Assembly: GCA_041906785.1 (NCBI GenBank)
Contig: JAYRIM010000017.1
Coordinates: forward strand, 210-64,209
Direction of reading: 5' to 3'
Length of the DNA: 64,000 bases
From: Candidatus Levyibacteriota bacterium
GTDB lineage: Bacteria > Patescibacteriota > Microgenomatia > Levybacterales > UBA12049
Shown: piece by piece, positions 38,020 through 58,319 of the stretch
Layout: every line of letters starts with the position of its first letter
Numbering within the stretch: the first letter of the stretch is position 1
The notes under the pieces: generated by a model
Database searches by the model: none
Seen by the model: the letters and a program-made list of their open reading frames with translations, nothing else
Told to the model about the DNA's origin: nothing
Translations under genes and position numbers: made by a program

Positions 38020-38710
38020 CTAAAATTCCTTTTTTATATAAAACGTTTTTTACTTCGTCATGAATAGCTTCTCTACTTTTCATATTCCCGTTTTTATCAA
38101 TACAATTAATCATTACCCAATGAGGAAATTTCTTTACCAACCATTTATATGTCTCTACGGCATTTTTAAGATATGCCACATCTTTTTCCACAATATCTTT
38201 ATTTCTTCCTTTAGTATATGCTCTTCCATGCCTATCTTTATTTTGCATTAACTTTATAGACGTTTGATATGGTACGTAAAAATAAAGCACAATATCTTCT
38301 TGGGGAATTTTATTATATGTATATTCCAATTCTGTATCCCATTTTAAAAATTTCAATCTCTGGCGTTTCGGTAATCTTCCACATTGGTGGGCCAAATTAG
38401 AAGGAACATATCTATCAAGTACAATATATTCCCCATTGTTTAACCATTTGTCCATTTTCTCTTTTTCTCCAGCGCGGTCCATAGCATAGAGAACAGATAC
38501 TAAATATGGATTTACATCTGACAATGGCCCAAACTCACCTCTAAGAAATTGGTCAACCATTTTACCGAAAAAAGATATTCCATGTTGAGGGAATTTCAAT
38601 GTATTAACTGGAATATCTATTTTTTTGAAATATTCCAATAGCAAATTCATTTGTGTAGATTTACCAGCGCCGTCAGAACCTTCAATAACAATTAATTTCC
38701 CTTTTTTCAT
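38009..38710 (-). CDS. tmk: Thymidylate kinase-like dNMP kinase (paralog 1)
   Basis: P-loop IVIEGSDGAGKST (compare E. coli Tmk IVIEGLEGAGKTT). DRY-like LDRY motif. Confidence 0.75.
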   Translation of the reverse strand: MKKGKLIVIEGSDGAGKSTQMNLLLEYFKKIDIPVNTLKFPQHGISFFGKMVDQFLRGEFGPLSDVNPYLVSVLYAMDRAGEKEKMDKWLNNGEYIVLDRYVPSNLAHQCGRLPKRQRLKFLKWDTELEYTYNKIPQEDIVLYFYVPYQTSIKLMQNKDRHGRAYTKGRNKDIVEKDVAYLKNAVETYKWLVKKFPHWVMINCIDKNGNMKSREAIHDEVKNVLYKKGILVTT

Positions 38711-38758
38711 ACTTTGTGATTTATACTCAATACCAAATACTAAATACTTTATACTACT
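38711..38758. repeat. AGTAT heptad-repeat block (ATACTAAATACT family) between dut and tmk
   Basis: aatactaaatactttatac. Related copies at 6021-6060 and 39975-40030. Related also to the IR of cassette 2. Confidence 0.45.
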
Positions 38759-39202
38759 TTATCCCGTCGATCCATATCCTCCTCTGCTTTTTTCGCTTAT
38801 TTTTTCAACCTCAATAAAATCCGCTTTTTCTATAGGAATTAAGCATCCTTGTGCTAACCGTTCACCTTTTTCGACCACAACTTCCTCATCAGAGAAATTT
38901 AAAACTTGTAATAATATTTCATCTTCTGGTCCGTTATAATCTTGGTCAATAATACCAATCCCATGTGGAATCAGTAAACTTTTTTTTCTAGGTGTACTGG
39001 ACCGAGGAACAACAATAAACATATATCCGGTAGGTACTTCAATAATAATATTCAGTGGAATAAGACCTAGCTGTCTAGATCGAATAGCAATTTTCTTTCT
39101 ACTTTGGAGATCGAAACAGCACGCCCCTGTTGTCGCATAACTCGGCAAAGGTAGTGTTTTATCAATTCTTTTAATCTTTATTTGCATTTTTTCACTTTTC
39201 AT
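38759..39202 (-). CDS. dut: dUTP diphosphatase
   Basis: GIGIIDQDYNGP (dUTPase motif III). C-terminal RGGYGSTG motif V. Confidence 0.9.
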   Translation of the reverse strand: MKSEKMQIKIKRIDKTLPLPSYATTGACCFDLQSRKKIAIRSRQLGLIPLNIIIEVPTGYMFIVVPRSSTPRKKSLLIPHGIGIIDQDYNGPEDEILLQVLNFSDEEVVVEKGERLAQGCLIPIEKADFIEVEKISEKSRGGYGSTG

Positions 39203-39246
39203 ACATTAGGCTCTGCTCAGTATGACCTTGAGTCTTATCGAATGGG

Positions 39247-39993
39247 TCATTTTTCATTTTTATTTTTTAATTTCCCTAGAATATCATCTGTCACTTGTTC
39301 TACAGGTTTTTCCCCATCTATTAGAACAAACTCCTTCTTAAATTCTTTTATTAACCAACGATATCCAGCCACAACTTTCTCGAGTTTTTCTTTTTTTTCG
39401 TAGACATCATTTTCTGCTTTTCTGTCTTTCTTTTTTAATGACCTCCGTAAACCTTCTTCAGGACTAATATCTATATAAAAAACAATATCAGGAATAATAA
39501 ATTGGTGGTAGTGGGATAATAAACCCTGTGTTATAAGCATTCGATCAGCTCCTTCACGCGTAAAATTAACACCTTTATCCATTAATCCATAGGGAATCGC
39601 TGACCAAAAACATCGGTCTGAAATCACGACATGTCCTTTTTTTAATGCAGGGATTACTATTTCATCCTGGTTTATCGCACGATTCGCAGACATCCAGTAT
39701 TGAAATGCTTGACCAGAGATTGCAATCTCTCCTCGAAAAAATTGCATAATCTGCTCTCCGCCTGGAAGAGTTACACGAGGCTCGCTTGTCATAGTCACTT
39801 TTTTTCTCTTTTTTATGAAATATGTTTCTAAAGCTTTTGCTTGAGTCGTTTTTCCCGAACCATCTATGCCTTCAAGGGCTATATAGAAACCCTTAAATGG
39901 GTTCTTTTTTAATGAGATATCTAATTCGATATGGTATTCCATGTTTCGTATCGAGTATAGAGTATTTTGTATTTTGTATATCATTATTATCAC
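39247..39993 (-). CDS. Thymidylate kinase-like dNMP kinase (paralog 2)
   Basis: P-loop IALEGIDGSGKTTQ. SDRC motif (for DRY) further on. Confidence 0.7.
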   Translation of the reverse strand: MIIMIYKIQNTLYSIRNMEYHIELDISLKKNPFKGFYIALEGIDGSGKTTQAKALETYFIKKRKKVTMTSEPRVTLPGGEQIMQFFRGEIAISGQAFQYWMSANRAINQDEIVIPALKKGHVVISDRCFWSAIPYGLMDKGVNFTREGADRMLITQGLLSHYHQFIIPDIVFYIDISPEEGLRRSLKKKDRKAENDVYEKKEKLEKVVAGYRWLIKEFKKEFVLIDGEKPVEQVTDDILGKLKNKNEK

Positions 39994-40028
39994 TTCATAC
40001 TAAATACTTAATACTAGATACTTTATAC

Positions 40029-40616
40029 TTATTTTGAGAGGTTTTTCCAGTATTGGCTTGCAATTGGTTTAGGATTTTTACTAAATGGATTTTTATATTT
40101 TTTAGTTCCAAGAACTGCCTCACCATATGTATGTTCTGCTGGAGATGACAATAATGAGAATCGTATTTGCCCAATCGGCATATAAGGATAAATGATCATT
40201 GGTTGTTCTGTTAAATTTGTTATTTCCAATGTTATATGTCCAGCCCACCCGGGATCGACAAATCCAGCCGTCGCATGGATTACTAACCCCAGCCGTCCAA
40301 GCGACGATTTTCCTTCTACATTTGCTAACAGTTGATTACTAAGAGCAAACCATTCCGACGTAACACCTAAGATAAACTCCCGCGGATGAATGACAGTCCC
40401 TTGCTTTTCATCCATCACTTCGTATTCCATATATTCATCCACAGGTTTTTTTAAATCGATTACTGCGTTCTTTATTCTTCTTCTAGCGAAGGTAAGAATT
40501 GTAGGGGCGATATGAACATCAAGCGATGATGGTTGAAATGTTAATTTGTATGGGGATTGTATCTCAAGTTTTTTTTCTTTTAAGGCTTTTTTAATATCTC
40601 TATCAGATAGAACCAT
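40029..40616 (-). CDS. dcd: dCTP deaminase
   Basis: MVLSDRDIKKAL N-terminus, then GLVIHATAGFVDPGW and the conserved E-containing strand. Confidence 0.9.
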   Translation of the reverse strand: MVLSDRDIKKALKEKKLEIQSPYKLTFQPSSLDVHIAPTILTFARRRIKNAVIDLKKPVDEYMEYEVMDEKQGTVIHPREFILGVTSEWFALSNQLLANVEGKSSLGRLGLVIHATAGFVDPGWAGHITLEITNLTEQPMIIYPYMPIGQIRFSLLSSPAEHTYGEAVLGTKKYKNPFSKNPKPIASQYWKNLSK

Positions 40617-40797: not shown

Positions 40798-41442
40798 GTG
40801 GTATATGATGAAAGTATGATCTATATCCCAAAAAAATTACTTCTTCTGTTTACCATTATTTTTATTCTCATAGGTGTTAATGTTTATCTATATTTGAAAA
40901 CTCCAAAGCTTCAACCAGAACCACAAGCAATTCCTAAACCGTTTACAATTAAAGTTACCCCTTCTGCATCTTCTTATAAAACTATCTATGGGAAAGGAAC
41001 AAATATTATTTATACCTCAAAGACTCCATATGCTTTAAGTGGAAGTGGTTTAATCGAAACTGTAGCTCAGGATGGAAAAACATATATTGGATATATAGTT
41101 GGACTTTTCCAGGGTTTTGAATCGATCGCAAACAGCACAGATAAATATGCGCTCATTAGTGAATATGATACAAATAAAGTATATAAAGTCCGCACATTTT
41201 GGGGAACAGAAAATACTCTATTAACAAAAGTCCTTCTGGAAGATTTAAATCAAATTGGTGATGATGTAGTCGGAAGAGGTTATTTAAAAAAAATTGGGAC
41301 TATTGTTGATCAATCCTCAAGATTTACACATGGTAAAGTCATTATTACAATGCTTATGCCTGCCAAAAACAATGGTATAGATATAGGACCTTTAAAAGAT
41401 ATAAATGCAAATTACCAATCAGAATGGATTGTCATGCGCTAA
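40798..41442 (+). CDS. Secreted/membrane-anchored hypothetical protein
   Basis: N-terminal TM segment LLLLFTIIFILIGVNVYLYL. Confidence 0.4.
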   Translation: MVYDESMIYIPKKLLLLFTIIFILIGVNVYLYLKTPKLQPEPQAIPKPFTIKVTPSASSYKTIYGKGTNIIYTSKTPYALSGSGLIETVAQDGKTYIGYIVGLFQGFESIANSTDKYALISEYDTNKVYKVRTFWGTENTLLTKVLLEDLNQIGDDVVGRGYLKKIGTIVDQSSRFTHGKVIITMLMPAKNNGIDIGPLKDINANYQSEWIVMR

Positions 41443-43684
41443 TACTATGAATAAATCTATATTGCATATTAGTATTATCTTTATTTTTTCAGTAATAGCT
41501 TTTTTTATAGTAACCTCAAATAATGAAACAGTATTTGCACAAATGACATGTTGTAATGATTGTTTAGGAGGTGTTTGCCAACCAGACGCCAATTGTGTAC
41601 CTCCAGGTGTAATATGTACAAATACATGCAGTAATCCCTTTGGGAGTTGTAGTGCAGGCCAAGGATGTTCATACGACACAAACTGTCCTGGATATCCAAA
41701 TGAAACATGTGTAAATGGGCAATGCGTGCAAGTGCCGCCAACCAATACTCCAGCACCTACGAGTACCCCAGAGCCAACAATTGGCGGAGGTAGCACTCCT
41801 GTACCAACCTCTTCAGGCTTACTCGCAGATGGTGCATCGTGCACTGGGAGCCCTCAATGTCAATCGGGTTATTGTTCTAGTACCACCCGTACTTGTGCTC
41901 CATTACTATCTTCAGGTAGCTGCACAACAGATCAACAATGTACATCTGGTTTTTGTAATAACAGCACACGTCTATGTGAGCAACCGCGAGCGAATGGAGC
42001 TATTTGTAATGAAGGGAACGAATGCCAATCTGGATACTGTAATGATTTTAATAGATGTGCTACTCCCTCTTCAGGATCTGCTTGTTTCGATGGTGGCGGT
42101 TGTGGACCTAACTATTACTGCACATCAGAGTTAAGTGCAAATCCGAATGGTCTTTGTCAACCAAAATTAAATAACGGACAAACATGTTCTGTAAACGTCC
42201 AGTGTACTTCTGGGTATTGCAACGGAATATGTCAAAATGACCCAGGAAATGCAGTACGACAACCTAACGGGTTTGCTTGCTCTGTAAATGAGAACTGCGC
42301 ATCAGATTACTGCTTAAATGGTTTTTGCCGTACAAATCCTAATCCTCCAACAAATACACCGACTCCACTTCCGACTAACACACCATTACCGACGAATACA
42401 CCTACACCGTTGCCAACAAACACACCAACTCCTTTACCGACGAATACACCTACAGCTACACCTCTACCACGATATACTGTCTCAGGAAACGTTTTTGTTG
42501 ACTTAAATAAAAATGCGAGAAAAGATGCAGGTGAATCAAACTATGGTGGAACTATAACAATCGACTCCTCCCAACGACCTGATCAGACTATTTACGGCGG
42601 CGGCACGTATTCACTACTAGGAATTTTAGATGAATCCAGAAATTTTACTGTTTCACTGACAAGTGCAATCCCGGTCGGGTATCAATTGGTATATCCTCTC
42701 GGTACTCCTCCATCATTTAATATCGGCATAGGTGCATCATGTAATGTACCTGATACAACAACTGGAGGAAGATGTGACGGGACCGGAAACGTATTAGATC
42801 TTAATTTCGCTATTACGAATTCAATTACCTGGTATCAAGTAAGAGGATCTGATATCCGTATTGATTCTGGCTTTACAAATAATGTACCTTCTTCACCTGC
42901 CTGTTCAGGCCCATATGCATCTATTGCAGGATCAAACCCGGCAAATTCACAAGGTATAATTTTTGCTGGAGATCAAACAAGCACATTTGGAGCTGGCCAG
43001 TCTTCAGCCAATGGATGGCTTGCAGGAGGTACAGCATACCCTGAAGTTTTTCGAGCAAATAGGACAACTTTTTCTACATCGTATGCGTCTGTACTTTCCG
43101 CTGCACAACAAGGCGGGCTTACGATACATGATTTAGCAACAGATCCTCTCACTTCAAGTGGATGCAATAATCTTAACTTCTGCGCTCTCCCTTCAAATCT
43201 GCCGAGCGGTGTTTATCAAGCTAACGCAAATATGACTATCTCGAATGCATTTACTGTGGGAGCGAGTACAAATATTATTATTCTCGTGAATGGTACATCA
43301 GCCATACGCGCAGGCATAACAGTCCCAACCGGATCAACCCTTACATATATCACAAAAGATGATCTCCTTATCGATAGGACTGTGGGACAAGTTCCAGCAT
43401 GTAACGGAGCGAATAATGTCGAGGGTGTTTTCGTTGCAGGAAGAAATGTTCTTGTTGAAGGAAATAATAACTGCAGCGTAGGAGCAGATATACAACTCCG
43501 ACTTGGTGGAACTCTTATTGCAAATGCAAACCGCCAGGGAGGATCTTTTACCAATAACCGCGATCTTTGTGCGCAGAATCCCAGTTACCCATCAATTCTT
43601 TTTTCAGAAAGGCCAGATTTTATATTAAACGCCCCGAATATTCTAAAAAGAAAAAATCTTATTTATCAGGAAGTAGCCCCATAA
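41405..43684 (+). CDS. Large Cys-rich surface protein: signal anchor, 8 or more C-x-SG-(Y/F)-C modules, PT-linker, SdrD/CnaB-like domain, C-terminal beta-rich domain
   Basis: Repeated CQSGYC/CTSGFC/CTSGYC modules. (PTNTPTPL)n linker. GNVFVDLNKNARKDAGE, a Ca-binding B-type repeat. Confidence 0.5.
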   Translation: MQITNQNGLSCANTMNKSILHISIIFIFSVIAFFIVTSNNETVFAQMTCCNDCLGGVCQPDANCVPPGVICTNTCSNPFGSCSAGQGCSYDTNCPGYPNETCVNGQCVQVPPTNTPAPTSTPEPTIGGGSTPVPTSSGLLADGASCTGSPQCQSGYCSSTTRTCAPLLSSGSCTTDQQCTSGFCNNSTRLCEQPRANGAICNEGNECQSGYCNDFNRCATPSSGSACFDGGGCGPNYYCTSELSANPNGLCQPKLNNGQTCSVNVQCTSGYCNGICQNDPGNAVRQPNGFACSVNENCASDYCLNGFCRTNPNPPTNTPTPLPTNTPLPTNTPTPLPTNTPTPLPTNTPTATPLPRYTVSGNVFVDLNKNARKDAGESNYGGTITIDSSQRPDQTIYGGGTYSLLGILDESRNFTVSLTSAIPVGYQLVYPLGTPPSFNIGIGASCNVPDTTTGGRCDGTGNVLDLNFAITNSITWYQVRGSDIRIDSGFTNNVPSSPACSGPYASIAGSNPANSQGIIFAGDQTSTFGAGQSSANGWLAGGTAYPEVFRANRTTFSTSYASVLSAAQQGGLTIHDLATDPLTSSGCNNLNFCALPSNLPSGVYQANANMTISNAFTVGASTNIIILVNGTSAIRAGITVPTGSTLTYITKDDLLIDRTVGQVPACNGANNVEGVFVAGRNVLVEGNNNCSVGADIQLRLGGTLIANANRQGGSFTNNRDLCAQNPSYPSILFSERPDFILNAPNILKRKNLIYQEVAP

Positions 43685-43702
43685 CCCACAACTCACAACT
43701 AA

Positions 43703-43760
43703 ATTCGATCATGTGTGATCGAATTTACATTCTTGACAGTACATCTTTAAAATGTACATA
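43703..43760 (+). promoter_or_regulatory. Operator-like palindrome (ATTCGATCA-TGTG-TGATCGAAT) followed by a TTGACA-N17-(T)ACATAAT promoter and a second GTACA...TGTAC dyad
   Basis: Read directly from sequence, immediately upstream of the cohesin-like gene. Confidence 0.5.
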
Positions 43761-44351
43761 ATGGTTACAAGAGCTATGTCGAAAAATGTATTGCTTCTGT
43801 TACTTGGACTCTTTCTTATTACTGTTGTTCTCCTTATCGTGACATTACAACGAGGAACGCCTGAACCATCATTAAAGCCACAATTGACAAAAAAGCCAAG
43901 CGGGACAATAGTGCCAGCAAATGCAAAATCAATATTAACATTACAACCAAATCCAGTTACTCTGAATGCAAACGGTAGTGGCTCAATAAATGTGGAATTG
44001 AATACAAATGAAAATGCAGTAACAGCTGTACAGTTAGAGTTAGCATACGATCCAGCTGTGTTATCAAACGTTACTATCGCTGCAGGCCCATTTCTAGGAA
44101 AACCAATAGAACTTTTAAAAAACATAGATAAATCAAAAGGCACAGTCACACTCATGTTAGGAATTACACCTGCACAGGATCCGGTCCAAGGTAAAGGAAT
44201 CGTCGCAACCATTGAATTTATGAGACTCGGAGCGACTACAGAAAAAACGACTGAATTCCAATTACTCAATTCTAGTCTTGTAACTGCATCTGGAATAGAT
44301 AATAGTGTCCTCCGCTCAGCTAAAGGAACCACAGTCGTCCTCGAACAATAA
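43752..44351 (+). CDS. Cohesin-like domain protein (membrane-anchored)
   Basis: N-terminal TM. VQLELAYDPAVLSNVTIAAGPFL resembles the type-I cohesin strand pattern (V-x-hydrophobic-x-YDP-x-hydrophobic-L). Confidence 0.5.
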   Translation: MYIMVTRAMSKNVLLLLLGLFLITVVLLIVTLQRGTPEPSLKPQLTKKPSGTIVPANAKSILTLQPNPVTLNANGSGSINVELNTNENAVTAVQLELAYDPAVLSNVTIAAGPFLGKPIELLKNIDKSKGTVTLMLGITPAQDPVQGKGIVATIEFMRLGATTEKTTEFQLLNSSLVTASGIDNSVLRSAKGTTVVLEQ

Positions 44352-44413
44352 CTAAAATAACTATTTTCCTCTTCTGTCTCCTCTGTCCCATCTGGCTTTT
44401 TGGACCCTTTAAG

Positions 44414-47200
44414 TTGAGATTCTCTACGTACTTGACGAAATACAGTAAATGCCTCTACTATAGTGGTATGTCACCTTTTTTAGAAAAGTTACGCCATCAT
44501 AAAAGCCTAACGGTAAGTCTCTTTCTATTTTTATTTTTAACATTACCTCTTCTTATATATGTGTTACAACAGCGTCAAGACATCCGCCAAAGAGCTTCCG
44601 AACAAACAAGTGTAATAAATATTCAAGCTAAAGGTACACCTTGTGAGAATACCTATCCTACGTTAATACTTAAAACAGACGGTACTGAGATTAAAAGATG
44701 GGAAAATGTTGGAAATGTTTTACAAACGTACTCCTACAGCGGAAGTTTGCCAAGTAATATAAACAATATTGTTATAGAGTTTCCAAATGATTGTTATCAA
44801 GATACCAATGAGGATCGCAATCTTTATATAGAGTCTATAGAATTTAACAGTAAAAAAATCTCTGGCAACACAGCAGGTGTCATTAACACTGCCTCAGGGA
44901 CCGGTGAAAATAAAAAATGGCTTTTTACGAATGGAGCTTTGATTTTCCCCACACAATTATTTGCTGAATCTGAAGCTCCAGTACCAGTAGGTATATCATG
45001 CACTGCAACTCCTGCATCAGATACAATTCTTTCCATGAATATGACATCTCCATCCACTGATGATTCTAGACTTACTCCTGTTAAAAATGCTGGTAAAGCC
45101 TATGTCGATTATCTTGCCACTAATACCCAAAACTATGTAGGCCTAGTAAACTATTCAAGTGGACTTCTTACTCTTACTACTAATTATACAGAAGTGAAAC
45201 AAAGTATTGATTGGACACCAGCACGTACATATACGAATAATAAACTTGCAGATGCACTTGATTTAGCATTTCGTGTATTGATTACAAGCACCCGAACAAA
45301 TGTACCTAAAAAAGTAATACTATTTACTGCTGATAAACAAGATCCTGCTGATAATTCGAGATTAATTACAACAGCTGGCTATTTCCAAAATGGACGCGAT
45401 TGGCAAATTTATACAATCGGTCTTGGATCGAATATTGACGAAAACATTTTACAAACAATTGCTTCTACCACAAAAGGGAAATATTATCATGTAGACCAGA
45501 TTGATCAGCTACAGGATGCATACTTATCTATAGAAAAAGGTACTATAAGTGGATCGGTATTTAATGACCTAAATACCAATGGAATTCGCGACCAAGGTGA
45601 ACCTGGAGAGTTCAATTGGCCAGTACACGTTTACTCAACATCATCTCCAAATCAAGTCCTAGAAATTCTTAAAACTGATACCAATGGAAACTATTCATTT
45701 AAAAAGTTTTGCGCAGGTCAAACATATACCTTAAAACCTGTTCAGAAACCAGGTTGGCAACAAACCTTACCTGCAAATAATGAAGGGTATACAGTCGCAG
45801 TGACGAAAGATAGTGTGAATGCAGATAAGAATTTTGGATTTAAAGTTCTCCCTAGCCCTACACCATCGCCGACTATAACTCCAACACAAACTCCACAAAC
45901 AGGGTCTGTTGATGTTGATGTGAATATTATTGGCGGTACAATTCCCTCAGGAAAATATCTTAAACTTCTCGCATGTGATAAAGGTCCTAATGGACCGGAA
46001 TGCGGCACGGCAACGAGAGATATGAAAACTATCAATACTTCAGGAACCGTAATTCTTAGTAACATTCCAGCAGGACAGACTATAACTGATATGCGTATAG
46101 CATATTATAACCAGGCTGGAGACCAAAATTTGGGAACCTTACCGAATTGGGAGCAAGTATTCAGTGTTAGCAATTGTCCAAACGCCGGACAACTTACCTG
46201 TACTGTTGATGTACCTGCTGGGGGAAAATCTTTAACCAAACCACGGTATACAATTGATCTGTCAAAAACGCAAGTCTTTTCGAAAATTGAACCGATCAAT
46301 ACTGCTACAGTTACCTATGGTTCAACAAAGTTTTCCTGGACACAACATCAAAACACAATGTATCAGTTCTATATCATTGAATATTATAACGCAGCAGGTG
46401 TAAGAGTATACCAAACATCTACACCATCATTAACCCAAACAGAAACTACGATTGACCTTTCTACTGTTGTAAACCCTGAAACAAGTCAACGGGCGTTTGA
46501 AGCTGGTAAGGATTATTACTGGCAAGTGTTTGCTAATAATGGTGGCTCTTCACAGGATGTAGCAAATAATAATGAAAAATGGAAATTTACTATTCTTAAT
46601 GGAGAACCAACGAGAACTCCTACTGTAGATCCTTCACATAGTGTTACATTAAATATTAATCTTTATCTTCATGGTCTTGGTAATAGTGGAGATAATGTAA
46701 GTACCCAAAGTGCCTTAAGTAATAAAAATCCTAACCGTAAAGTTAGGCCTGCATTTGTCGAATTATTAAACAATCAGGGACAGGTAGTAACTGGAAACCA
46801 AGGGACGATAACATATGCTAGTGAAAGCGGAAGTTTCGCTGGTTCAGTCGTTGTAGGTATCCCTTCGACTACACAAACTGTAAATGGACCATATACAGTC
46901 AGAGTTAAGAGCGACCAATATGTCACAAATAGAGTTGCTGGTATATTCAGTTTTGATTCTGGACAATCATATACACTTCCAGATACCACGCTTACTACCG
47001 GTGATGTTATAAATGATAATAAATTAAATATTCTTGACTATAACGTGCTATATGGCTGCTATACAGGTAGTATTTTAACAGTCGCTCGAAATTGTAATGA
47101 AACGAAAAAAGCTGCTGCAGATCTTACTGATGAAGGTACTGTTAATCAATATGATTTAAATCTCTTCATACGAGAACTCTCCGTCCAATCCGGTTTCTAA
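44414..47200 (+). CDS. 928-aa surface protein: TM anchor, vWA-like, CnaB/SdrD-B-like, FN3-like, conserved C-terminal module and dockerin-like tail
   Basis: vWA-like ILFTADKQDPADNS...IYTIGLGSNID. GSVFNDLNTNGIRDQGEPGE. C-terminal LYLHGLGNSGDN...NKNP module. GDVINDNKLNILDYNVL...ADLTDEGTVNQYDLNLFIREL resembles two dockerin Ca-binding segments. Confidence 0.6.
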   Translation: MRFSTYLTKYSKCLYYSGMSPFLEKLRHHKSLTVSLFLFLFLTLPLLIYVLQQRQDIRQRASEQTSVINIQAKGTPCENTYPTLILKTDGTEIKRWENVGNVLQTYSYSGSLPSNINNIVIEFPNDCYQDTNEDRNLYIESIEFNSKKISGNTAGVINTASGTGENKKWLFTNGALIFPTQLFAESEAPVPVGISCTATPASDTILSMNMTSPSTDDSRLTPVKNAGKAYVDYLATNTQNYVGLVNYSSGLLTLTTNYTEVKQSIDWTPARTYTNNKLADALDLAFRVLITSTRTNVPKKVILFTADKQDPADNSRLITTAGYFQNGRDWQIYTIGLGSNIDENILQTIASTTKGKYYHVDQIDQLQDAYLSIEKGTISGSVFNDLNTNGIRDQGEPGEFNWPVHVYSTSSPNQVLEILKTDTNGNYSFKKFCAGQTYTLKPVQKPGWQQTLPANNEGYTVAVTKDSVNADKNFGFKVLPSPTPSPTITPTQTPQTGSVDVDVNIIGGTIPSGKYLKLLACDKGPNGPECGTATRDMKTINTSGTVILSNIPAGQTITDMRIAYYNQAGDQNLGTLPNWEQVFSVSNCPNAGQLTCTVDVPAGGKSLTKPRYTIDLSKTQVFSKIEPINTATVTYGSTKFSWTQHQNTMYQFYIIEYYNAAGVRVYQTSTPSLTQTETTIDLSTVVNPETSQRAFEAGKDYYWQVFANNGGSSQDVANNNEKWKFTILNGEPTRTPTVDPSHSVTLNINLYLHGLGNSGDNVSTQSALSNKNPNRKVRPAFVELLNNQGQVVTGNQGTITYASESGSFAGSVVVGIPSTTQTVNGPYTVRVKSDQYVTNRVAGIFSFDSGQSYTLPDTTLTTGDVINDNKLNILDYNVLYGCYTGSILTVARNCNETKKAAADLTDEGTVNQYDLNLFIRELSVQSGF

Positions 47201-47320
47201 TCTAAGATTGTTAGCTAGAGTTGCCAGATAAAAGTTACCACGTAAATGATATTCATACAAGGTAATAAACGATGGATGAAAAGCAAAAGTTGTTATCAGA
47301 CAATACTAAAAGTTTTGTAA

Positions 47321-47386
47321 CTTACTGACAACTGACCCGCTTCGACCTGTCGAAGACGAGGCGAGCAACCGACAACTGATAACTGC
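47321..47386. repeat. Solo copies of the cassette-3 IR word (ACCGACAACTGATAACT; GACAACTGA x2) plus a cttcg-acctgt-cgaag hairpin
   Basis: 17/18 match to accgactactgataact at 58303-58320. Confidence 0.5.
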
Positions 47387-47453
47387 TTCTTCTTGACACT
47401 CACCTCCGAACTCTCTACTATAAAAATAGAGCCTAGATAGGCGAAAATACTAT

Positions 47454-48071
47454 ATGAGAAAAACAGTTTTACTTATTGTGTTTTTAATGGTCGTTGCAAT
47501 GATACTATTATTCGTTGCATTAACTGCACCACGCCAGCAAAAAAAAACTACGGCAGAAAATACACCACCGACTCCAACTCCTATCGCTAGTACTGTTCTT
47601 ACATTTAATCCCAGAACAGTTACAGTAGACGAAAATGGCATTGGCTCTGTCTCTATTGAAATAGATACCGGCTATAACCAAGTCACAGGCGTTCAACTAG
47701 AATTAGGTTTTGATCAAAATACGTTAATAAATGTTAAAGCTACTCCAGGAACTTTTCTCCCCAAAGCGGTTGTTCTTTTAGAGAATACGTCTGTAGCTGG
47801 AAGATATTCATATATGCTTGGTTTGCCGCTTGCAGGTAACCCAGTTAACGGAAAAGGTACAGTAGCCACGGTTCAATTCCAGGCAAATCCTCTGAGAACG
47901 CCACAAGCACAAACGATATTAACTATTATGCCAAAAAGTCTTATTACCTCCCTTGGAGTTGAAGGTTCTGTTTTAAAAAAAGCTGATACATTGACTATAC
48001 TATTACCTCAACCTACCACAACCGTTCAGACACCTACCGGTACACTGGTCAATCCAACGACTCAACAATAA
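47454..48071 (+). CDS. Cohesin-like domain protein, paralog of 43752..44351
   Basis: VQLELGFDQNTLINVKATPGTFL, and GKGTVATVQFQ against GKGIVATIEFM in the paralog. Confidence 0.5.
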   Translation: MRKTVLLIVFLMVVAMILLFVALTAPRQQKKTTAENTPPTPTPIASTVLTFNPRTVTVDENGIGSVSIEIDTGYNQVTGVQLELGFDQNTLINVKATPGTFLPKAVVLLENTSVAGRYSYMLGLPLAGNPVNGKGTVATVQFQANPLRTPQAQTILTIMPKSLITSLGVEGSVLKKADTLTILLPQPTTTVQTPTGTLVNPTTQQ

Positions 48072-48075
48072 AGGT

Positions 48076-50109
48076 ATGAAATTACAATCATATGTAAACA
48101 GAAAGTTGATCTATGCTTCTCTATTGCTCCTTCCTCTGTTTCTTATTGTCTTTCAGTTAGTTACATTTCGCCAAGATCCACGAAGCCGCGCTACTGGTTC
48201 TGTCCGGTTATTTGTGAATCCTGAGTCTTCTTCATCAAATCCTATTAGAAAAAATTTGAATGAAACTGTCGAATTGAAGTTAATGCTCGATCCGGCACAA
48301 GCAAGCGTATCTGTTGTGAAGGTCGAACTTATATATAACACGACAAATTTGCAGCTAGCAGAGACAAACGGTGTACAGTTTAATACAAATGCTTTTCCCT
48401 CTATGATAGATGGACCAGTAGTCAGAGATGGAAAAGTAGCTTTTACCGTCAGTATCGGTGCTGATGCTACAAAAGCGATCACTTCACAAACAGAAGTCGC
48501 TACAGTGCGTCTAAAGACTCTCGCCACTACTACAAGTCCTTTAGAAATAAAGTATGGAGATAATAGTGTTGTTGTTTCAGTCGGACCAAGTGAAACATTA
48601 GATGATAATGTACTTGGCACAAAAGATTCTGCGTATATCGAAGTTGGAACAAATTTCCCGACAGGCGCTACCACACCAATTCCCCCACCTATTGGAGGTT
48701 GTCCTTATGACATCCCTGATGCTTCGGTTCCAATAAGTTTAGTTAATACAGGTTCTCAAGTCTGGGTAACAAATTATGACAATAATACTATTTCCAGAAT
48801 CGCATTGGATGGGTCAAAAGCAGGTGAAAGCCTTACTGAAAATGGTTTGAATGGACCTACAGGAATCGCTCTGATAGGAAACGAAGTATGGGTCGCAAAT
48901 TATGATAATAATACGATCTCTTTCTTTAATCTTGACGGTACGTCAGCAGCTTCTCCTTTGACACTTCCAAATAACTCAGATTCCCCTGAACAACGCGGTA
49001 TTTTAGGTTTCGCCAAAACAGATAATGAAGTTTGGTTAAGTGATCAAAAAAACAATGTCATTTTTAGACTCAAAACAGATAAACAGTTAGCTGGTGATCC
49101 TATTAAGATTCCAGGAATTGTAGGCATGAGATTTATTACAACAGTAGGCCAAGAAGTTTGGGTAGTCAGTAACCCGACATTAAACCCTTCAAGCGCTGAT
49201 GGAAAAATTTATCGATTAAAATTTGATGGGACAAGTGCTGGGTCACCAATTGTTAACAGCAAATTGATTAATCCAACACATATTCTCGCAGTAGGAAATG
49301 AGATTTGGGTAACAGATGAATTAGAAACCAATTTCGTTCGCTTTAAACAAAACGGTGATTTTATAGGGATCATAGATATGTATGAACTGGCATATGTAAA
49401 TAGTGGCATGGCTGTCGTAAATGGAAAAGTATGGATTATTGAAGGATTTGAAAATCTTATTAATATTCTTGATTCTCAGGGAAGAAACCTTTGCGGTAAT
49501 ATCGAACCGACAGTCTCCGTACGACCTACTCAGAATCCTGACAGAACAACACTTGAATTAAAACTCTTACTCCATGGCATTGGTAAAGCTGGAGATAATA
49601 CGAATCCCACCGGTAATTCATTTAGTAATAAGAATCCTGTTACACAAGAACGTACGATAAGTATTCAACTCGTAAATGAGGATAATGAAATTATTGCTAC
49701 GAAAATTGCACCAGCTTTTTATAGTAAAGACCAAGGGCTTTATTTTAGCAATGTGATTATAAATGATACTATTCCTACCGGTGACTATGTTGTAAAAGTA
49801 AAATCTGATGGATATTTACGGCAACTAATGCCTGGATTCTTTTCACTGCAGCCTGGTAAAAAGTTTGCTATGCCAGTTACACAACTTACAGCCGGAGATA
49901 TTAACGGAGATAATACGCTGAATGTGCTTGATTATAATGTACTCTATGATTGTGGGTACGGTAAAATTAATCCAAAACCGATGATTGATCCTGGATCAGC
50001 TTTTAAATCACCAGCTTGTCAATCACACGCCCAAAAAGAACTAGCAGATTTAACAGATAATGGTACGGTCGATAATAAAGATTATAATCTCTTCATCCGC
50101 GAGTTCTAG
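48076..50109 (+). CDS. 677-aa surface protein: TM anchor, cohesin-like domain, 6-bladed beta-propeller (YVTN/NHL-like), conserved C-terminal module and dockerin-like tail
   Basis: Six (V/I)W(V/L)(T/A/S)... blades (VWVTNYDNNTISR, VWVANYDNNTISF, VWLSDQKNNVIFR, VWVVSNP, IWVTDELETNFVR, VWIIEGFENLINI). LLLHGIGKAGDN...NKNP module. GDINGDNTLNVLDYNVL...ADLTDNGTVDNKDYNLFIREF. Confidence 0.6.
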   Translation: MKLQSYVNRKLIYASLLLLPLFLIVFQLVTFRQDPRSRATGSVRLFVNPESSSSNPIRKNLNETVELKLMLDPAQASVSVVKVELIYNTTNLQLAETNGVQFNTNAFPSMIDGPVVRDGKVAFTVSIGADATKAITSQTEVATVRLKTLATTTSPLEIKYGDNSVVVSVGPSETLDDNVLGTKDSAYIEVGTNFPTGATTPIPPPIGGCPYDIPDASVPISLVNTGSQVWVTNYDNNTISRIALDGSKAGESLTENGLNGPTGIALIGNEVWVANYDNNTISFFNLDGTSAASPLTLPNNSDSPEQRGILGFAKTDNEVWLSDQKNNVIFRLKTDKQLAGDPIKIPGIVGMRFITTVGQEVWVVSNPTLNPSSADGKIYRLKFDGTSAGSPIVNSKLINPTHILAVGNEIWVTDELETNFVRFKQNGDFIGIIDMYELAYVNSGMAVVNGKVWIIEGFENLINILDSQGRNLCGNIEPTVSVRPTQNPDRTTLELKLLLHGIGKAGDNTNPTGNSFSNKNPVTQERTISIQLVNEDNEIIATKIAPAFYSKDQGLYFSNVIINDTIPTGDYVVKVKSDGYLRQLMPGFFSLQPGKKFAMPVTQLTAGDINGDNTLNVLDYNVLYDCGYGKINPKPMIDPGSAFKSPACQSHAQKELADLTDNGTVDNKDYNLFIREF

Positions 50110-50112
50110 GAG

Positions 50113-51759
50113 TCAGCTGAGTCGTTCATCTGTATGGAGTTTATATGTCTGACGTGTTGCCCATGCTTGATCGGCATACTGAAAAGGCAATAATTGTAAT
50201 TGACTAGGTACAACTCTACTCCCAACTAAAACGTCTTTAGGAACAGTTAATCCAGCAAATATCCGATCTGCTTTTCTTCCCGCCATATCTTGATACCAAC
50301 TATCTAAAATCTCTTCAATATTACCATCTCTGGCTACTACATGAGGCTGCTGTTTTTCTAGAAAAACTTCTCTTCTCCCTCCATTTCTAGGATAAAAAGC
50401 TGCCTCACGTAAAATATACGCTTTTGGATCAGCCATTATATTATTTTCTCTAACAAAATCATTTAATAAACCTCTATCGAAATAGGCACGCACTCTATAG
50501 ATATCTTGAGCTGTTTTTACTCTATCTCTGACTAGCCCAAAAAAGTTTTCAATCTCACCTTCATCTGCTCCATTAAAATGTAAAAGTAATAAATGACTTA
50601 ATGCATGTAGACGTTCTCGAATAGCAACATAGTACAAATCATGATCTAACAATGAGAGAGATTCATCAATAGCTTCTCCTTCAGACTGTCCCACGTTTCT
50701 CAGGGTAAATCCGCCTCGGAACGAATCGCGATAAGTAGCTATTAAATTCATTAAAGCTGCATCAACATCTTTTTGTCGTAAGACTTTCTCTAAAACTCCG
50801 CGTACACTTTTAGGAACTGCCTCCTGGGCTGCGATAGCGGTTTGGGCATCTGGAAAAAAATTCCCAGCTCGTAAAGCAGTACCCTGCCTAAAACGCTTAT
50901 TATAGTCAGACTCTCTTGTAACTTCCCCTAAAATGTTGTTACCAAATAAAAAAACAGGTGACGAAACATCACGAAGAAAAAAATCCTGGCTCATCGTCAC
51001 CATTTTCGCCCAGTATTCTCTATATCGAATATCCTCTGGGGTTAATACTCTATTCGGAGGGAATTCAGCATATGTTGCTTGTACGACAAGACGCTCTAAC
51101 TCACCAATCATAAATGGCGAAGCCATAGCACCTTGCGCACGAACTGTATGGTTCACAGCTCTATATGCTGTATTTTTCGCAATTGTATATATAGGTAATC
51201 CCAATGGTGTATATGGATGATATTCTGTAAACGCTCGGAGATCTCTTCTGTTATATATAGTCACACGCGAATTATGAATATCTTCTAGAAATGTTTCAAA
51301 AGATACTTCACTTTCATCCATTCTCAAAGCACCCTTTACACGATTGACAAGCCCAATCATATCTGCAGCTTGTGCATGGAAGCTTCGGAATTGGCGTTCC
51401 GTCGGTACATCTGCAATATTCTCGTCCAAAATATTTGCAGATACTGCTTCAGCAAGCCCATATGCAAAAGCAGCTTTTCCAACTGTATATCCATCGTTCC
51501 CATTAGTAGTTATTTCGTTCAGGCGAAAACAGAATGAAGCAAGTGAGTCCAAGTATCTCCTTTCTGATTCAGAAAAAGCTAATCGAGCAATTGAACCTTC
51601 GAGAGCATCAACAGTTGCCATTGCATCTTGTTTAAAACTAACCTGTGCTGCTTCAATATCAGCATTCTCTGGGGGTTTAAATAATGACGCGTCTCTTTGT
51701 AATAAATCATGCGGTAATGCTGATTCATCACCTTGTTGTATTCTTTCACTGATACTCAT
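50113..51759 (-). CDS. Hypothetical 548-aa protein (ORFan island gene A)
   Basis: Long clean ORF with slightly elevated GC. No recognisable motif. Confidence 0.4.
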   Translation of the reverse strand: MSISERIQQGDESALPHDLLQRDASLFKPPENADIEAAQVSFKQDAMATVDALEGSIARLAFSESERRYLDSLASFCFRLNEITTNGNDGYTVGKAAFAYGLAEAVSANILDENIADVPTERQFRSFHAQAADMIGLVNRVKGALRMDESEVSFETFLEDIHNSRVTIYNRRDLRAFTEYHPYTPLGLPIYTIAKNTAYRAVNHTVRAQGAMASPFMIGELERLVVQATYAEFPPNRVLTPEDIRYREYWAKMVTMSQDFFLRDVSSPVFLFGNNILGEVTRESDYNKRFRQGTALRAGNFFPDAQTAIAAQEAVPKSVRGVLEKVLRQKDVDAALMNLIATYRDSFRGGFTLRNVGQSEGEAIDESLSLLDHDLYYVAIRERLHALSHLLLLHFNGADEGEIENFFGLVRDRVKTAQDIYRVRAYFDRGLLNDFVRENNIMADPKAYILREAAFYPRNGGRREVFLEKQQPHVVARDGNIEEILDSWYQDMAGRKADRIFAGLTVPKDVLVGSRVVPSQLQLLPFQYADQAWATRQTYKLHTDERLS

Positions 51760-51791: not shown

Positions 51792-52877
51792 ATGGAAGAA
51801 AACATAGTACTTACACCCTCTGTACCGATTCTTTGTATGAACCGAGATAAGGAAGCAATAAGGTTTGCTCTCGAACGTTTACGCTCAAGTGAACCTTCTT
51901 CAATTATTGGATTAGCTGGTTCAGGAAAGGATATTATTTTCTCTTCTTTAGTTGAAACTTTACAAAATCAACCATCGCATTACAAACTTATTGCAAAACA
52001 CTGTACATCAGTAGAAGACCTTCATGCACTTCTTAATGAAATAGAACAAGTAACTGCCTTTATAATTTGTATCATCAATTTTTCTCTGCAAGAAGATGCA
52101 TCCTGGTTTATTGAAAAATTGAATGAAATCCGTGAAAAAAGAGAGACACAATTTGTGAGTATCATTATCTCGTATATAAAACCAGTGCTCATATCTCTTC
52201 AACAAAAATCAAAAATCCTACTACGGTCTACGTACATCCTCACACCGATAACACAAGAAGATGCTGATTTTTTATTACGCGATTTCCAGCGTCGTTTTAC
52301 TTACAAACCTTCAGAAGAAGAAAAAAAAGAAATCTATTTTTGGAGTACCGGTTATGTGGGGTTATTTAAATCACTCTACCTTACAGCAAAGGACAATAAT
52401 TTTAAAAAATTTGATGAAGAATTTCTTATAAAGCAAGAACCTGTCTTAGTAAGGCTACAAAATATTTTTGATGATGTCTCTGAAGAACAATTTAGAAACG
52501 TTTTACAAAAACGTCTTTCAGAACAAGATGGATTCTTTCTTCAAAAGATAGGATTGATAGATGAATCATGTGAAATATATAATAAATTATTGAGACATTT
52601 CATTCTAGATAAAGTTCATTTGTCTCATAATGATCTTTCTTTATTACTAACTGAGAAGGAGTCACAAATATTTGCTTATTTTAAGCAACACGAAAATATT
52701 TTGGTAAAAAGAAGTAGTATTGCTGAAGTTATATGGAACGACTCTATTGAAGAGCATTACTCGGATTGGGCTATTGATCAATTTATTCATAAAATAAGAG
52801 AAAAAATGGTAAAAACAGCAAATCCATTTAAAATTATTACTAAAAAAGGCCAGGGTTTTATTTTTGTAGCTACATAG
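51792..52877 (+). CDS. Putative regulator: degenerate P-loop NTPase N-domain plus C-terminal OmpR/PhoB-type winged helix (island gene B)
   Basis: Walker-A-like IIGLAGSGKD. The C-terminal segment AEVIWNDSIEEHYSDWAIDQFIHKIREKM...IITKKGQGFIFV matches the trans_reg_C pattern (...VW....R.VD.HI..LR.K......I.TVRG.GY.F). Confidence 0.55.
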   Translation: MEENIVLTPSVPILCMNRDKEAIRFALERLRSSEPSSIIGLAGSGKDIIFSSLVETLQNQPSHYKLIAKHCTSVEDLHALLNEIEQVTAFIICIINFSLQEDASWFIEKLNEIREKRETQFVSIIISYIKPVLISLQQKSKILLRSTYILTPITQEDADFLLRDFQRRFTYKPSEEEKKEIYFWSTGYVGLFKSLYLTAKDNNFKKFDEEFLIKQEPVLVRLQNIFDDVSEEQFRNVLQKRLSEQDGFFLQKIGLIDESCEIYNKLLRHFILDKVHLSHNDLSLLLTEKESQIFAYFKQHENILVKRSSIAEVIWNDSIEEHYSDWAIDQFIHKIREKMVKTANPFKIITKKGQGFIFVAT

Positions 52878-52883
52878 TGACAA

Positions 52884-54602
52884 TTATTTAAGGGGTTCGG
52901 AGCCGTAACCAAGTTTAACAAATGGTATAACACACCAATTTCTTCTCAATTTATCAGCTAGTACAGGTAAAGCGACTGAGTACTGTTCTATCAATCGAGA
53001 CGAAATAGAATAATAGGGATAATATAATATCGCCATCCGTTTCCGAAGGTTATTAATACCTATACCTACGCTAAAATTTTCTACACCTTTTGATCGTAAG
53101 TATTGAAAAAACTCATCATCCGTTAATAATCCCCATTTTATGGGTAAATCATCCCACTCGATTTTAGCAATTTCTCTCCACTCTTCTTCAGAAAGAGGAT
53201 CACGAACGATTTCTTGAACGATAATTGGTAATGCTGCACCTGTAAATTGTTGTGGATCAGTAAAATTACCAGAAGAATCTACCACTCTACCTTCTTTTCT
53301 ATTTTTCCGTATCAAGCTAGCAGAGAGTTCTATGCTCCCAGGAAGATTTGCTTCTTCATATGAAAAAACAGTAAATGTTGGGATTTTATAGGGAGGATAC
53401 CCACCTTCTGAAACACGAATACATTCTTCGTCATGCTCACCATATGGATAGGTATGAACTGGGTTGTCAGATTCTAGCTTACCAGTTTTCTGTTTTTCTG
53501 TTTGCTCAACTGATTGACTGATGACTGACTCACTGCTTGCTGACAGCTGAGAACTGAAAACTGATGACTGATCAGGATGCATATTATTTAAGAACCCACT
53601 AAATGTACTTGTTAATAACAACATAAATCGAGTTTCCAACTCCTCTTCTGCTTGTTTGTTTCGTTCTTCCAAATATGGATAAACATTTTTAATTCTGCGT
53701 GCTATAGATGGATGCAGTTGCTCTTTCATGTCAGCAATTGCTTTCCAGAACGCTTTCGCAGAGTTTATATAATTTCTTCTCCAATCAAGTATAAATGCAC
53801 GTTTTTCAAATAGTTCCTTCACTTTTTCATCTCGTGCAATCTCTTCTGTTGAAATAATTTTTCCTTCTTTGACAAATCGTTCGATCGTATCAGATAAAAA
53901 TTCCTTCCCATTCTTCATTACATAATCGAAGACCCTATCGGTTTCTAAACCCATATACATATATCCAGTATGCGGATCAAAACTTATTTGGATTGCATGA
54001 ATTCGTTTTTCTTTTCCATATGTATTCTCCACAAAAAGCTTTGTCGCTTTTGCCATCTGCAACTTATGTGATACATCTGCAAATAATCCGGCATCTTGAG
54101 GATCACGGCCTTTTAATTGTTCTTCCTGGAAACGAGCTGCACAGCCGAGATGACTGTCAAATACTTCAACAATAGAATCGAGGTTAAAATCTGTATATGC
54201 GCGTTGAATATACCGAGCGAAGTCTGACTCTTCTTTTAGTTTCAATTGTCCATCTGTTCCTCGAACAAATTCCCGCAGAATACCGCCAGGAACCTTAATA
54301 CTACTTCCTATACCTGCTGATGCACCATGCATCAATACACGTAGTACACGGCCATCAATACAGAGATTCCAAAATATTTTAACCGGTAATAAACTATTTG
54401 CGAATTTCTTAATTTTTATATAGTCTTCAGAAGAAACTTCTTCCGCTCTTGCATTATTATCTTTTATAAAATCTTTGAAAAAATGACGGAGATAATCATA
54501 ATTCTCCTTAGCACGTGGATTTGGAAGAAGTTTATTATATGCCTCAAGCCGATCTATAAGCTGATCTATTTGTTTAAATAATGTTGACCCACCAGTAAGC
54601 AT
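52884..54602 (-). CDS. Hypothetical 572-aa protein (island gene C) with a beta-carbonic-anhydrase-like CxDxR...HxxC signature
   Basis: Cys81-Ile-Asp-Gly-Arg85 (NLCIDGRV), then about 70 aa on, IVEVFDSH151LGC154AA. The spacing and flanking beta-strand are consistent with the beta-CA zinc site. The rest of the protein is unassignable. Confidence 0.4.
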   Translation of the reverse strand: MLTGGSTLFKQIDQLIDRLEAYNKLLPNPRAKENYDYLRHFFKDFIKDNNARAEEVSSEDYIKIKKFANSLLPVKIFWNLCIDGRVLRVLMHGASAGIGSSIKVPGGILREFVRGTDGQLKLKEESDFARYIQRAYTDFNLDSIVEVFDSHLGCAARFQEEQLKGRDPQDAGLFADVSHKLQMAKATKLFVENTYGKEKRIHAIQISFDPHTGYMYMGLETDRVFDYVMKNGKEFLSDTIERFVKEGKIISTEEIARDEKVKELFEKRAFILDWRRNYINSAKAFWKAIADMKEQLHPSIARRIKNVYPYLEERNKQAEEELETRFMLLLTSTFSGFLNNMHPDQSSVFSSQLSASSESVISQSVEQTEKQKTGKLESDNPVHTYPYGEHDEECIRVSEGGYPPYKIPTFTVFSYEEANLPGSIELSASLIRKNRKEGRVVDSSGNFTDPQQFTGAALPIIVQEIVRDPLSEEEWREIAKIEWDDLPIKWGLLTDDEFFQYLRSKGVENFSVGIGINNLRKRMAILYYPYYSISSRLIEQYSVALPVLADKLRRNWCVIPFVKLGYGSEPLK

Positions 54603-58289: not shown

Positions 58290-58319
58290 CTGATAACTGA
58301 TTACCGACTACTGATAACT
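58290..58319. repeat. Right inverted repeat of four-helix-bundle cassette 3; reaches the stop codon of 58318..59424
   Basis: See 57926-57952. Confidence 0.7.

Follow-up and report, generated by a model that had tools for sequence, protein, structure and literature searches.

The window analysed here, a 64-kb stretch of contig JAYRIM010000017.1 from a Candidatus Levyibacteriota bacterium, contains six co-directional open reading frames (ORFs) between 40.8 and 50.1 kb and a related seventh, p368, on the minus strand. We consider it probable that this locus encodes a non-cellulosomal, calcium-dependent cohesin/X-module-dockerin (X-Doc) system that attaches proteins to the cell surface and is able to extend into chains. 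Its components are two small cohesins (c199 and c205), two passenger-X-Doc proteins (p928 and p368) and one cohesin-passenger-X-Doc protein (p677), so that three cohesins stand against three X-Docs in the window (Table 1). Surface display by scaffold and passenger had been proposed from the letters of the DNA alone, and the proposal is supported by N-terminal anchors on the small cohesins, by three gene classes that cluster alike across 78 related loci, and by checks on the calcium positions of the dockerins and the fold of the cohesins. Parts familiar from cellulosomes seem to be used in this tiny-genome bacterium for hanging binding proteins on the surface rather than for digesting cellulose.

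The sequence-only reading had claimed a common C-terminal module in p928, p677 and p368, and when a profile of the three copies was run against all six reading frames of the window, it matched these three and nothing else. The E-values, 6e-104 to 4e-95 for these three only, show that the shared module is genuine and far beyond chance; identity to the p368 copy is 56% for p928 and 43% for p677. The conserved 'LHG(L/I)G..GDN...SNKNP' domain, previously put at about 150 residues, does exist, but its size is about 115 residues. The dockerin tail has 68-74 residues and the whole X-dockerin module 184-189. Against the curated cut-off of Pfam Dockerin_1 (PF00404; 22.9 bits), p368 lies above with 23.2 bits, and p928 (21.1) and p677 (15.3) lie below; the family is matched by 75 of 86 homologs at E ≤ 1e-3 (best E 4.1e-16). 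The tails align to dockerin profiles and keep their calcium-ligand positions across 146 family members, and so pass the check that had been proposed for them. Positions 1, 3, 5, 9 and 12 are Asp or Asn in 87-100% of these modules in both loops (segment 1: D1 in 142, N/D3 in 127, D/N5 in 144, N/D9 in 136 and D12 in 146; segment 2: D1 in 143, N/D/T3 in 136, D/N5 in 136, N/D9 in 141 and D12 in 142). In the same 146 modules the calcium loops and the dockerin helix residues DYN(I/L)(L/F) are nearly invariant, and the linker between the segments keeps two Cys in 95-100% of cases. At the C-terminus, members of the family share RELS(V/T/N)QxG.

When an 18-module profile was compared with all PDB sequences, the best match was the X-module-dockerin of Clostridium thermocellum CipA (2b59_B, E 2.2e-7), followed by 3kcp and 5g5d; the alignment to 2b59_B begins in the last strands of the X module and covers both segments of the dockerin. 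The AlphaFold2 model of the p368 module (184 residues; predicted local distance difference test, pLDDT, 89.6; predicted template modelling score, pTM, 0.83) is a beta-sandwich followed by three helices (129-138, 152-158 and 168-180). Its only Foldseek matches in PDB at E ≤ 1e-3 are the type II X-Doc dyads 2b59_B, 5m0y_B and 5k39_B, aligned over 181-186 columns with template modelling (TM) scores of 0.61-0.62 per target and 13-16% sequence identity. X and dockerin occur together in 152 of the 157 module-bearing ORFs found in related DNA. By profile and predicted fold, the shared module is a type II-like X-Doc dyad and not a new domain plus a dockerin; the sequence-only reading was right about the dockerin tail, and the upstream part that it had set apart as a separate domain is better read as the X module of the dyad.

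Conservation in the X module peaks at LHG(I/L)GxxGDNxNP....SNxNP, whose G, D, N and P residues are kept in 85-99% of the 146 modules. In p368 this stretch (residues 193-215, 58780-58848) falls in the loop that the model predicts with least confidence, at pLDDT 60-76. Such high conservation there suggests a role in function, as an interface or in binding metal or glycan, more than a place in the structural core.

The claim that c199 and c205 are membrane-anchored, cohesin-like paralogs is supported. c199 scores 33.3 bits against Pfam Cohesin (PF00963; curated cut-off 24.1 bits), and c205 is 37% identical to c199 (E 2e-30) and matches the family cohesin profile at E 1.4e-30. All six database homologs of c199 carry PF00963; five are of about 180-200 residues and one is a 117-residue fragment. 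Neither c205 nor the N-domain of p677 has a Pfam match at E ≤ 1. The pairwise cohesin similarity of the p677 N-domain is weak (E 0.008), but an iterated family profile matches it at E 3e-33, and a 25-sequence alignment headed by it matches PDB cohesins at E 9e-7 (ScaB type II cohesins at E 1.7e-3). The AlphaFold2 model of p677 residues 39-193 (pLDDT 94.9, pTM 0.89) has nothing except cohesins among its top 50 PDB matches, the best being 6kgf_C at E 7e-10, and so this least certain of the three candidates is predicted to have the nine-stranded jelly-roll beta-sandwich of cohesins; with this and the c199 score, the check proposed earlier for the cohesins is passed. Type I cohesins rank first (6kgf, 4dh2, 1g1k; TM 0.70-0.77), then type II (5k39_A, 2y3n_A, 1qzn; TM 0.56-0.71). 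Two cohesin subfamilies can be told apart, the small anchors and the N-domains of X-Doc-bearing proteins: the p677 cohesin shares 28-41% identity with the cohesin-X-Doc type and 23-24% with the anchors, and the indels differ.

Each protein of the locus has one strongly hydrophobic segment, which is N-terminal. The small cohesins have the most hydrophobic of these helices (Kyte-Doolittle scores 3.2-3.5; 3.21 for the single segment of c199 and 3.46 for that of c205), followed by Pro/Thr-rich linkers and no cleavage-type motif. In X-Doc proteins the h-region is followed by a conserved motif, Q-x-x-[QEDN]-x-R-x-[RKHQ]-A, which reads QQRQDIRQRA in p928 (residues 43-52, 44540-44569) and RQDPRSRA in p677 (residues 31-38, 48166-48189); c199 lacks the QQxQExRSRA motif. 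A strict version of the pattern is present in 34 of 92 X-Doc ORFs and in 35 of 60 that combine cohesin and X-Doc. Among other ORFs it is rare (10 of 5,513), and the 6 of 48 'small' cohesins that have it mostly resemble truncated adaptors. A fuller form, Q-Q-x-Q-(E/D)-x-R-(S/G/T)-(R/K/H)-A, is seen in many related loci (e.g. L008, L017 and L055). The motif may mark a signal-peptidase site of unusual conservation, or else a signal for sorting or processing that is particular to this lineage. Ordinary signal peptides with a VFA↓Q site are found in p368 (VFA↓QA, probable start 59385) and in p759 (probable start Met15 at 41447). From these N-termini we infer that the small cohesins remain membrane-bound and that the X-Doc proteins are released by signal-peptide cleavage.

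Word-based protein searches found few relatives. With an exhaustive profile search the number of representative proteins was 4,044 at E ≤ 1e-3 and 1,113 at E ≤ 1e-30, and in nearly all of them the module lies at the very C-terminal end. In species-representative genomes 111 matches were confirmed, often several per genome. Informative record titles among the matches listed are all Levybacteria, Levyibacteriota, Microgenomates or Patescibacteria, and no Roizmanbacteria or Shapirobacteria label appears among the 80 matches listed. In genomes, the X-Doc family is in essence restricted to Levybacteria (Microgenomates); this distribution, within the candidate phyla radiation (CPR), fits the 'episymbiont-like' cell that had been proposed. 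Many contigs with the gene cluster (L003, L006, L007, L009, L017 and others) bear the labels 'uncultured Gammaproteobacteria', 'Acidiferrales', 'Limnocylindrales', 'Lysobacterales' or 'Saccharimonadales'. A wide distribution based on such labels was rejected: because G+C content (0.36-0.45) and gene layout equal those of Levybacteria-labelled contigs, the deviating labels were treated as unreliable and seem to be placeholders or mistakes of binning.

Once duplicates are removed, the 78 related loci contain genes for 86 X-Doc, 58 cohesin-X-Doc and 45 small cohesin proteins; adding the window brings the totals to 88 for passenger-X-Doc proteins, 59 for cohesin-X-Doc proteins and 47 for small proteins with a cohesin only. 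The X-Doc counts are biased because the loci were gathered via the X-Doc module, and the cohesin counts are free of this bias. The clusters are co-directional, with several X-Doc or cohesin-X-Doc genes and usually a small cohesin last. The modal cohesin-X-Doc protein has about 410 residues, arranged as signal, cohesin, short linker and X-Doc; 39 of the 59 carry no passenger and have a linker of 8-80 residues alone, which is Pro/Thr-rich in the dozen inspected. For 86% of X-Docs the nearest neighbour in another locus comes from the same protein class; permutations give 51% on average and 64% at most. With two cohesin subfamilies and X-Docs that cluster by protein class, a two-tier specificity is plausible.

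Most of the adhesion-type passengers named by the sequence-only reading were recovered by Pfam, namely VWA and SdrD_B in p928 and the propeller of p677 (Vgb-lyase/NHL-type), the FN3-like part having no Pfam support at E ≤ 1. p928 also carries CBM60, which that reading had missed. Passengers among the 86 relatives include CBM_4_9 (10), VWA-type domains (7-8), SdrD_B (8) and CarboxypepD_reg (7), plus lectins and CARDB; hydrolase-type domains are BD-FAE (2), GH99 (1), a pectate-lyase-like domain (1) and peptidase S9 (2). NCBIfam gave nothing useful for any component of the locus or for the N-terminal motif.

These observations would fit together as follows. c199 and c205 would sit in the cytoplasmic membrane by an uncleaved N-terminal helix, each holding out one cohesin on a Pro/Thr-rich stalk. 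The X-Doc would act as a calcium-loaded two-helix plug braced by an Ig-like domain, and insertion of the plug into a cohesin would tether the passenger to the cell. p928 (CBM60-VWA-SdrD_B) and p368 (Cys-rich) would be terminal cargo, and p677, because it has both a cohesin and an X-Doc of its own, would be able to sit on an anchor and offer a further socket, extending or branching the assembly. That these cohesins would bind these X-Docs, with calcium, and the function that follows, are put forward because they are established for cohesin-dockerin pairs (review PMC12484212). Since the cargo consists mostly of binding modules, adhesion to a host cell, a surface or glycans is the likely purpose.

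Several points weigh against this display system. The p677 dockerin (15.3 bits) by itself misses the Pfam cut-off. Position 3 of segment 1 is V in p368 and I in p928, a rare departure (V in 7 of 146 members), and the first calcium site of these two proteins may be weakened. The p677 cohesin is nearest to type I and the X-Doc nearest to type II dyads, a pairing with no exact solved precedent. The abundance of X-Docs in the related loci partly reflects how the loci were gathered. If the N-terminal helices of the cargo were uncleaved, all components would be membrane-tethered, and contacts would be lateral and not stacked.

The same parts might instead make a structural product, with cohesin-X-Doc protomers joined head to tail into non-covalent fibres or a lattice on the membrane cohesins and passenger-X-Docs as caps or decorations. 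The cohesin-X-Doc class is abundant in the 78 loci, its modal form has nothing else to do but connect, and two or three such genes often stand in a row before the small anchor. However, class-wise separation of the X-Docs and the two cohesin subfamilies fit a fixed two-tier hierarchy equally well or better, intramolecular closure of cohesin on dockerin is possible with such linkers, and p677, the only cohesin-X-Doc protein of the window, holds a 300-residue propeller and is no bare connector; we regard a structural product as rather improbable. In a specific and still unlikely form of the idea, Levybacteria would build a calcium-dependent surface fibre or lattice of bare cohesin-X-Doc proteins chained from transmembrane cohesin roots, with adhesin-X-Doc caps, export marked by a lineage-specific N-terminal signal (h-region, then QQxQ(E/D)xRSRA) and host contact as its role. 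Such a structure, if real, would amount to an attachment organelle that resembles a pilus or S-layer and consists of cellulosome parts throughout.

A true cellulosome, in which dockerin enzymes are gathered on scaffoldins to degrade polysaccharide, is very doubtful here. Cohesin/dockerin proteins of Ca. Shapirobacterales are expressed and have been called cellulosome components (PMC9123182), p928 has a CBM60, and the relatives include CBM_4_9 in 10 of 86 and a few hydrolase-type domains. But none of the 109 cohesin-bearing ORFs in the window and the 78 related loci has more than one cohesin, which leaves no enzyme-collecting scaffoldin in the sampled stretches. No glycoside hydrolase family is matched by Pfam in p928, p677 or p368, and neither Pfam nor NCBIfam finds a CBM3, SLH domain or sortase signal in the window proteins. 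Modules for binding or adhesion (VWA, SdrD_B, CarboxypepD_reg, lectins and CARDB) are the most frequent passengers, and about two-thirds of the cohesin-X-Doc proteins have no passenger at all. The marks by which a cellulosome is recognized, a multi-cohesin scaffoldin, glycoside hydrolases as main cargo and an SLH or sortase anchor, are thus absent from the window and the sampled relatives. That the two kinds of domain never pair and are independent adhesion or ligand-binding modules in co-regulated surface proteins is hardly credible: isolated dockerin or cohesin domains with no evident partner have been reported from non-cellulolytic organisms (PMC10633639, PMC10066038), but here both partners are present, have expanded together in one lineage and are adjacent in operon-like clusters in dozens of genomes, the X-Doc lies at the extreme C-terminus as in known plug modules, and the near-invariant calcium loops and DYN(I/L)(L/F) are as expected of a conserved protein-protein interface.

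Table 1. Features of the cohesin/X-Doc locus in the 64-kb window
Feature	Position	Strand	Description
p214	40798-41442	+	214 residues; at the start of the range first noted
p759	41405-43684	+	759 residues; signal peptide, Cys-rich N-region, Pro/Thr linker, SdrD_B-like start, C-domain of about 400 residues
Palindrome	43700-43727	strand-neutral	perfect inverted repeat TAAATTCGATCA-TGTG-TGATCGAATTTA
Promoter-like site	43733-43762	+	TTGACA-18-CATAAT, 11/12 match; just 5' of c199
c199	43752-44351	+	199 residues; putative anchoring cohesin: transmembrane helix, Pro-rich linker, one cohesin (residues 60-195, 43929-44336)
p928	44414-47200	+	928 residues; passenger-X-Doc protein
p928, CBM60	44615-44884	+	Pfam
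p928, VWA	45047-45520	+	Pfam
p928, SdrD_B	45545-45781	+	Pfam
p928, between SdrD_B and X module		+	about 280 residues without assignment
p928, X module	46637-46990	+	module profile
p928, dockerin	46991-47197	+	module profile
Promoter-like site	47393-47421	+	TTGACA-17-TACTAT, 10/12 match; 5' of c205
c205	47454-48071	+	205 residues; putative anchoring cohesin: transmembrane helix, Pro/Thr linker, cohesin (residues 47-182, 47592-47999)
p677	48076-50109	+	677 residues; cohesin-passenger-X-Doc protein, adaptor class
p677, cohesin	48190-48654	+	
p677, propeller	~48718-49440	+	six-bladed-type beta-propeller
p677, X module	49540-49884	+	
p677, dockerin	49885-50106	+	
p368	58318-59424	-	368 residues; passenger-X-Doc protein, 8 kb from the cluster; signal peptide, Cys-rich region, Pro/Thr linker
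p368, X module	58528-58872	-	
p368, dockerin	58321-58527	-	

The Cys-rich region of p368 holds about 16 of the 18 Cys of the protein. The 'many C-x-SG-Y-C modules' described earlier for the locus are real as a motif, C-x-[ST]-[GD]-[YF]-C, which is present five times and is restricted to p759, where the N-region forms five to six four-Cys modules with C-x-S-G-Y-C. The p759 C-domain ends in ...RPDFILNAP...QEVAP; among its counterparts in related loci the ending is ...RPDFILNAP...(E/Q)E(V/A)AP, and the Cys-rich N-terminus is variable. The protein contains neither cohesin nor dockerin and matches no Pfam or NCBIfam family, and its C-terminal domain has no PDB sequence match. Some of its 55 homologs carry SdrD_B, CarboxypepD_reg or VWA Pfam domains. 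Full matches to the C-domain lie co-directionally beside the clusters in about 12 of the 78 related stretches, mostly at the 5' edge, with partial matches in a few more (loci with a p759-type neighbour include L007, L009, L015, L025, L047, L053 and L078); p759 is a conserved accessory gene of the cluster. p214 is probably outside the system, since it matches no Pfam family and none of the related loci holds a homolog of it.

The palindromic operator and repressor control proposed for the region upstream of c199 found no support. The palindrome (12-nt arms, 4-nt spacer) follows directly on the upstream gene, 16 nt past the p759 stop codon, and is missing from the equivalent intergenic regions of L007, L009 and L047, the three most comparable loci. 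With no second copy in the window either, where 0.01 copies are expected by chance, it was rejected as a conserved operator. As RNA it would form a hairpin of -12.6 kcal/mol (z -2.56) with no U-tract, and it remains a candidate for an operator or a terminator-like hairpin. The promoter-like site next to it, in contrast, recurs as TTGACA-(18/19)-CATAAT in L007, L009 and L047. Sites matching at least 10 of 12 positions precede 58% of small-cohesin and 61% of cohesin-X-Doc genes, compared with 12.6% of random windows. Over 40.5-50.3 kb promoter-like sites number 30 against a shuffled expectation of 31.9, no excess; only positional recurrence in relatives counts as evidence. The sigma-70-like site before c199 would imply a very short 5' leader for this gene. 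Its first ATG overlaps the -10 element, and the start is probably the ATG at 43776 (MSKNVLL...), since Met1 of c205 aligns to residue 9 of c199.

Divergently upstream of the cluster, the minus strand at 38009-40616 encodes a dCTP deaminase and two adjoining thymidylate kinase paralogs, an arrangement kept in 25-31 related loci. The neighbours of the cluster in relatives are the same as in the window (dCTP deaminase in 31 loci, thymidylate kinase in 25 and a ThyA-like gene in 18), and ThyA-, DHFR- and NDK-like genes are also found on this deoxynucleoside triphosphate (dNTP) metabolism side. Because these neighbours are kept, the surface-protein cluster is a vertically inherited core locus with a fixed chromosomal address beside dNTP-metabolism genes. 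The suspicion that recurrent minus-strand ORF families were antisense artefacts was rejected, as they are genuine neighbour genes (dcd and tmk); this check also took in the opposite-strand ORF 43709-44332.

A CAP/SCP-domain gene (cysteine-rich secretory protein family; 59513-60325, minus strand) adjoins p368 and has homologs near clusters in L006, L009 and L016 (E 1e-36 to 1e-50). A 572-residue protein (52884-54602, minus strand) has no Pfam family and a faint polysaccharide-deacetylase-like match (NCBIfam E 0.01); its homologs lie beside clusters in L003, L019, L040 and L071 (E ≤ 1e-149). The candidate for the regulator nearest to the cluster is a 361-residue protein (51792-52877, plus strand) with a C-terminal OmpR-type winged-helix DNA-binding domain (Trans_reg_C, E 6e-11), in which no receiver domain was detected and which has no homolog in the related loci. 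Two further large ORFs, of 548 (50113-51759, minus strand) and 563 residues (54787-56478, plus strand), match nothing in Pfam or NCBIfam and lack homologs in all 78 related loci.

CPR bacteria are thought to live attached to other cells, and to our knowledge their attachment machinery outside Saccharibacteria is largely undescribed. The locus offers a concrete, testable attachment candidate with few membrane sockets and one conserved plug, and the roughly 1,100 clusters of plug-bearing proteins amount to an inventory of the surface display of this lineage. The locus also bears on annotation, since matches to cohesin and dockerin in Microgenomates have been taken as evidence of cellulose degradation and the architecture here points to adhesion or display instead. 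In protein engineering, an X-Doc and a cohesin from so distant a lineage could make a compact pair for use as a new orthogonal connector. Non-cellulosomal cohesin and dockerin modules have been surveyed before, reportedly by Peer et al. in 2009 (cited in PMC10066038).

Among known systems, the closest solved one is type II anchoring in Clostridium (Acetivibrio) thermocellum, in which the CipA X-Doc pairs with SdbA, OlpB or Orf2p cohesins (2B59, 5K39, 5M0Y). Shared with CipA are a C-terminus in which an Ig-like X module is joined to a calcium dockerin of two segments and the proposed role, plugging a secreted protein into a cell-fixed cohesin. Unlike CipA, the Levybacteria family has an invariant linker Cys pair, the 'LHGxGxxGDNxNP...SNxNP' loop and a conserved RELSVQxG terminus, and its X-Doc is carried by many cargo proteins instead of one primary scaffoldin. 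The anchors also differ, being an N-terminal transmembrane helix plus one cohesin instead of SLH domains, and the partner cohesin, as modelled for p677, is structurally nearest to type I.

Single cohesin plus dockerin adaptors, as found here, are known from Ruminococcus flavefaciens (adaptors ScaC and ScaH, anchor ScaE and autonomous cohesin ScaG; 5LXV, 4IU2, 4WKZ, 4N2O), where several unrelated proteins are likewise bound to the surface via an X-Doc dyad (review PMC12484212) and whose cohesins are among the fold matches of the p677 cohesin. R. flavefaciens differs in anchors that are sortase-linked or free, in the multi-cohesin proteins ScaA and ScaB and in a large set of glycoside hydrolases, whereas the Levybacteria loci are dominated by single-cohesin adaptors and yielded no protein with several cohesins. 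The p677 fold matches also include the non-cellulosomal cohesins of Archaeoglobus fulgidus (2XDH) and Clostridium perfringens (2VO8), and the Ruminococcus bromii amylosome (PMC4611034) is likewise a cohesin/dockerin assembly of extracellular proteins outside cellulose degradation. Dockerins outside cellulosomes include an essential dockerin protein in a Saccharibacterium (PMC10633639) and giant Omnitrophota proteins that carry nine dockerins and have been interpreted as adhesins (PMC10066038).

Within the same superphylum-level group, Bell et al. (2022; PMC9123182) reported expressed cohesin and dockerin proteins in Ca. Shapirobacterales and read them as cellulosome components, and Geesink et al. 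(2020), as cited there, gave the same reading for Ca. Roizmanbacterium. Cohesin and dockerin proteins are present in both and in Levybacteria; unlike our analysis, these reports rest on domain annotation and infer cellulose degradation. Our literature search found no description of the X-Doc family or of its architecture, in which one CPR lineage has more than 1,000 protein clusters with an X-Doc, mono-cohesins with transmembrane anchors, and syntenic gene clusters that include bare cohesin-X-Doc connectors. The parts are already known, and Microgenomates cohesin and dockerin genes have already been reported as cellulosomes; the lineage-specific architecture described here is new.

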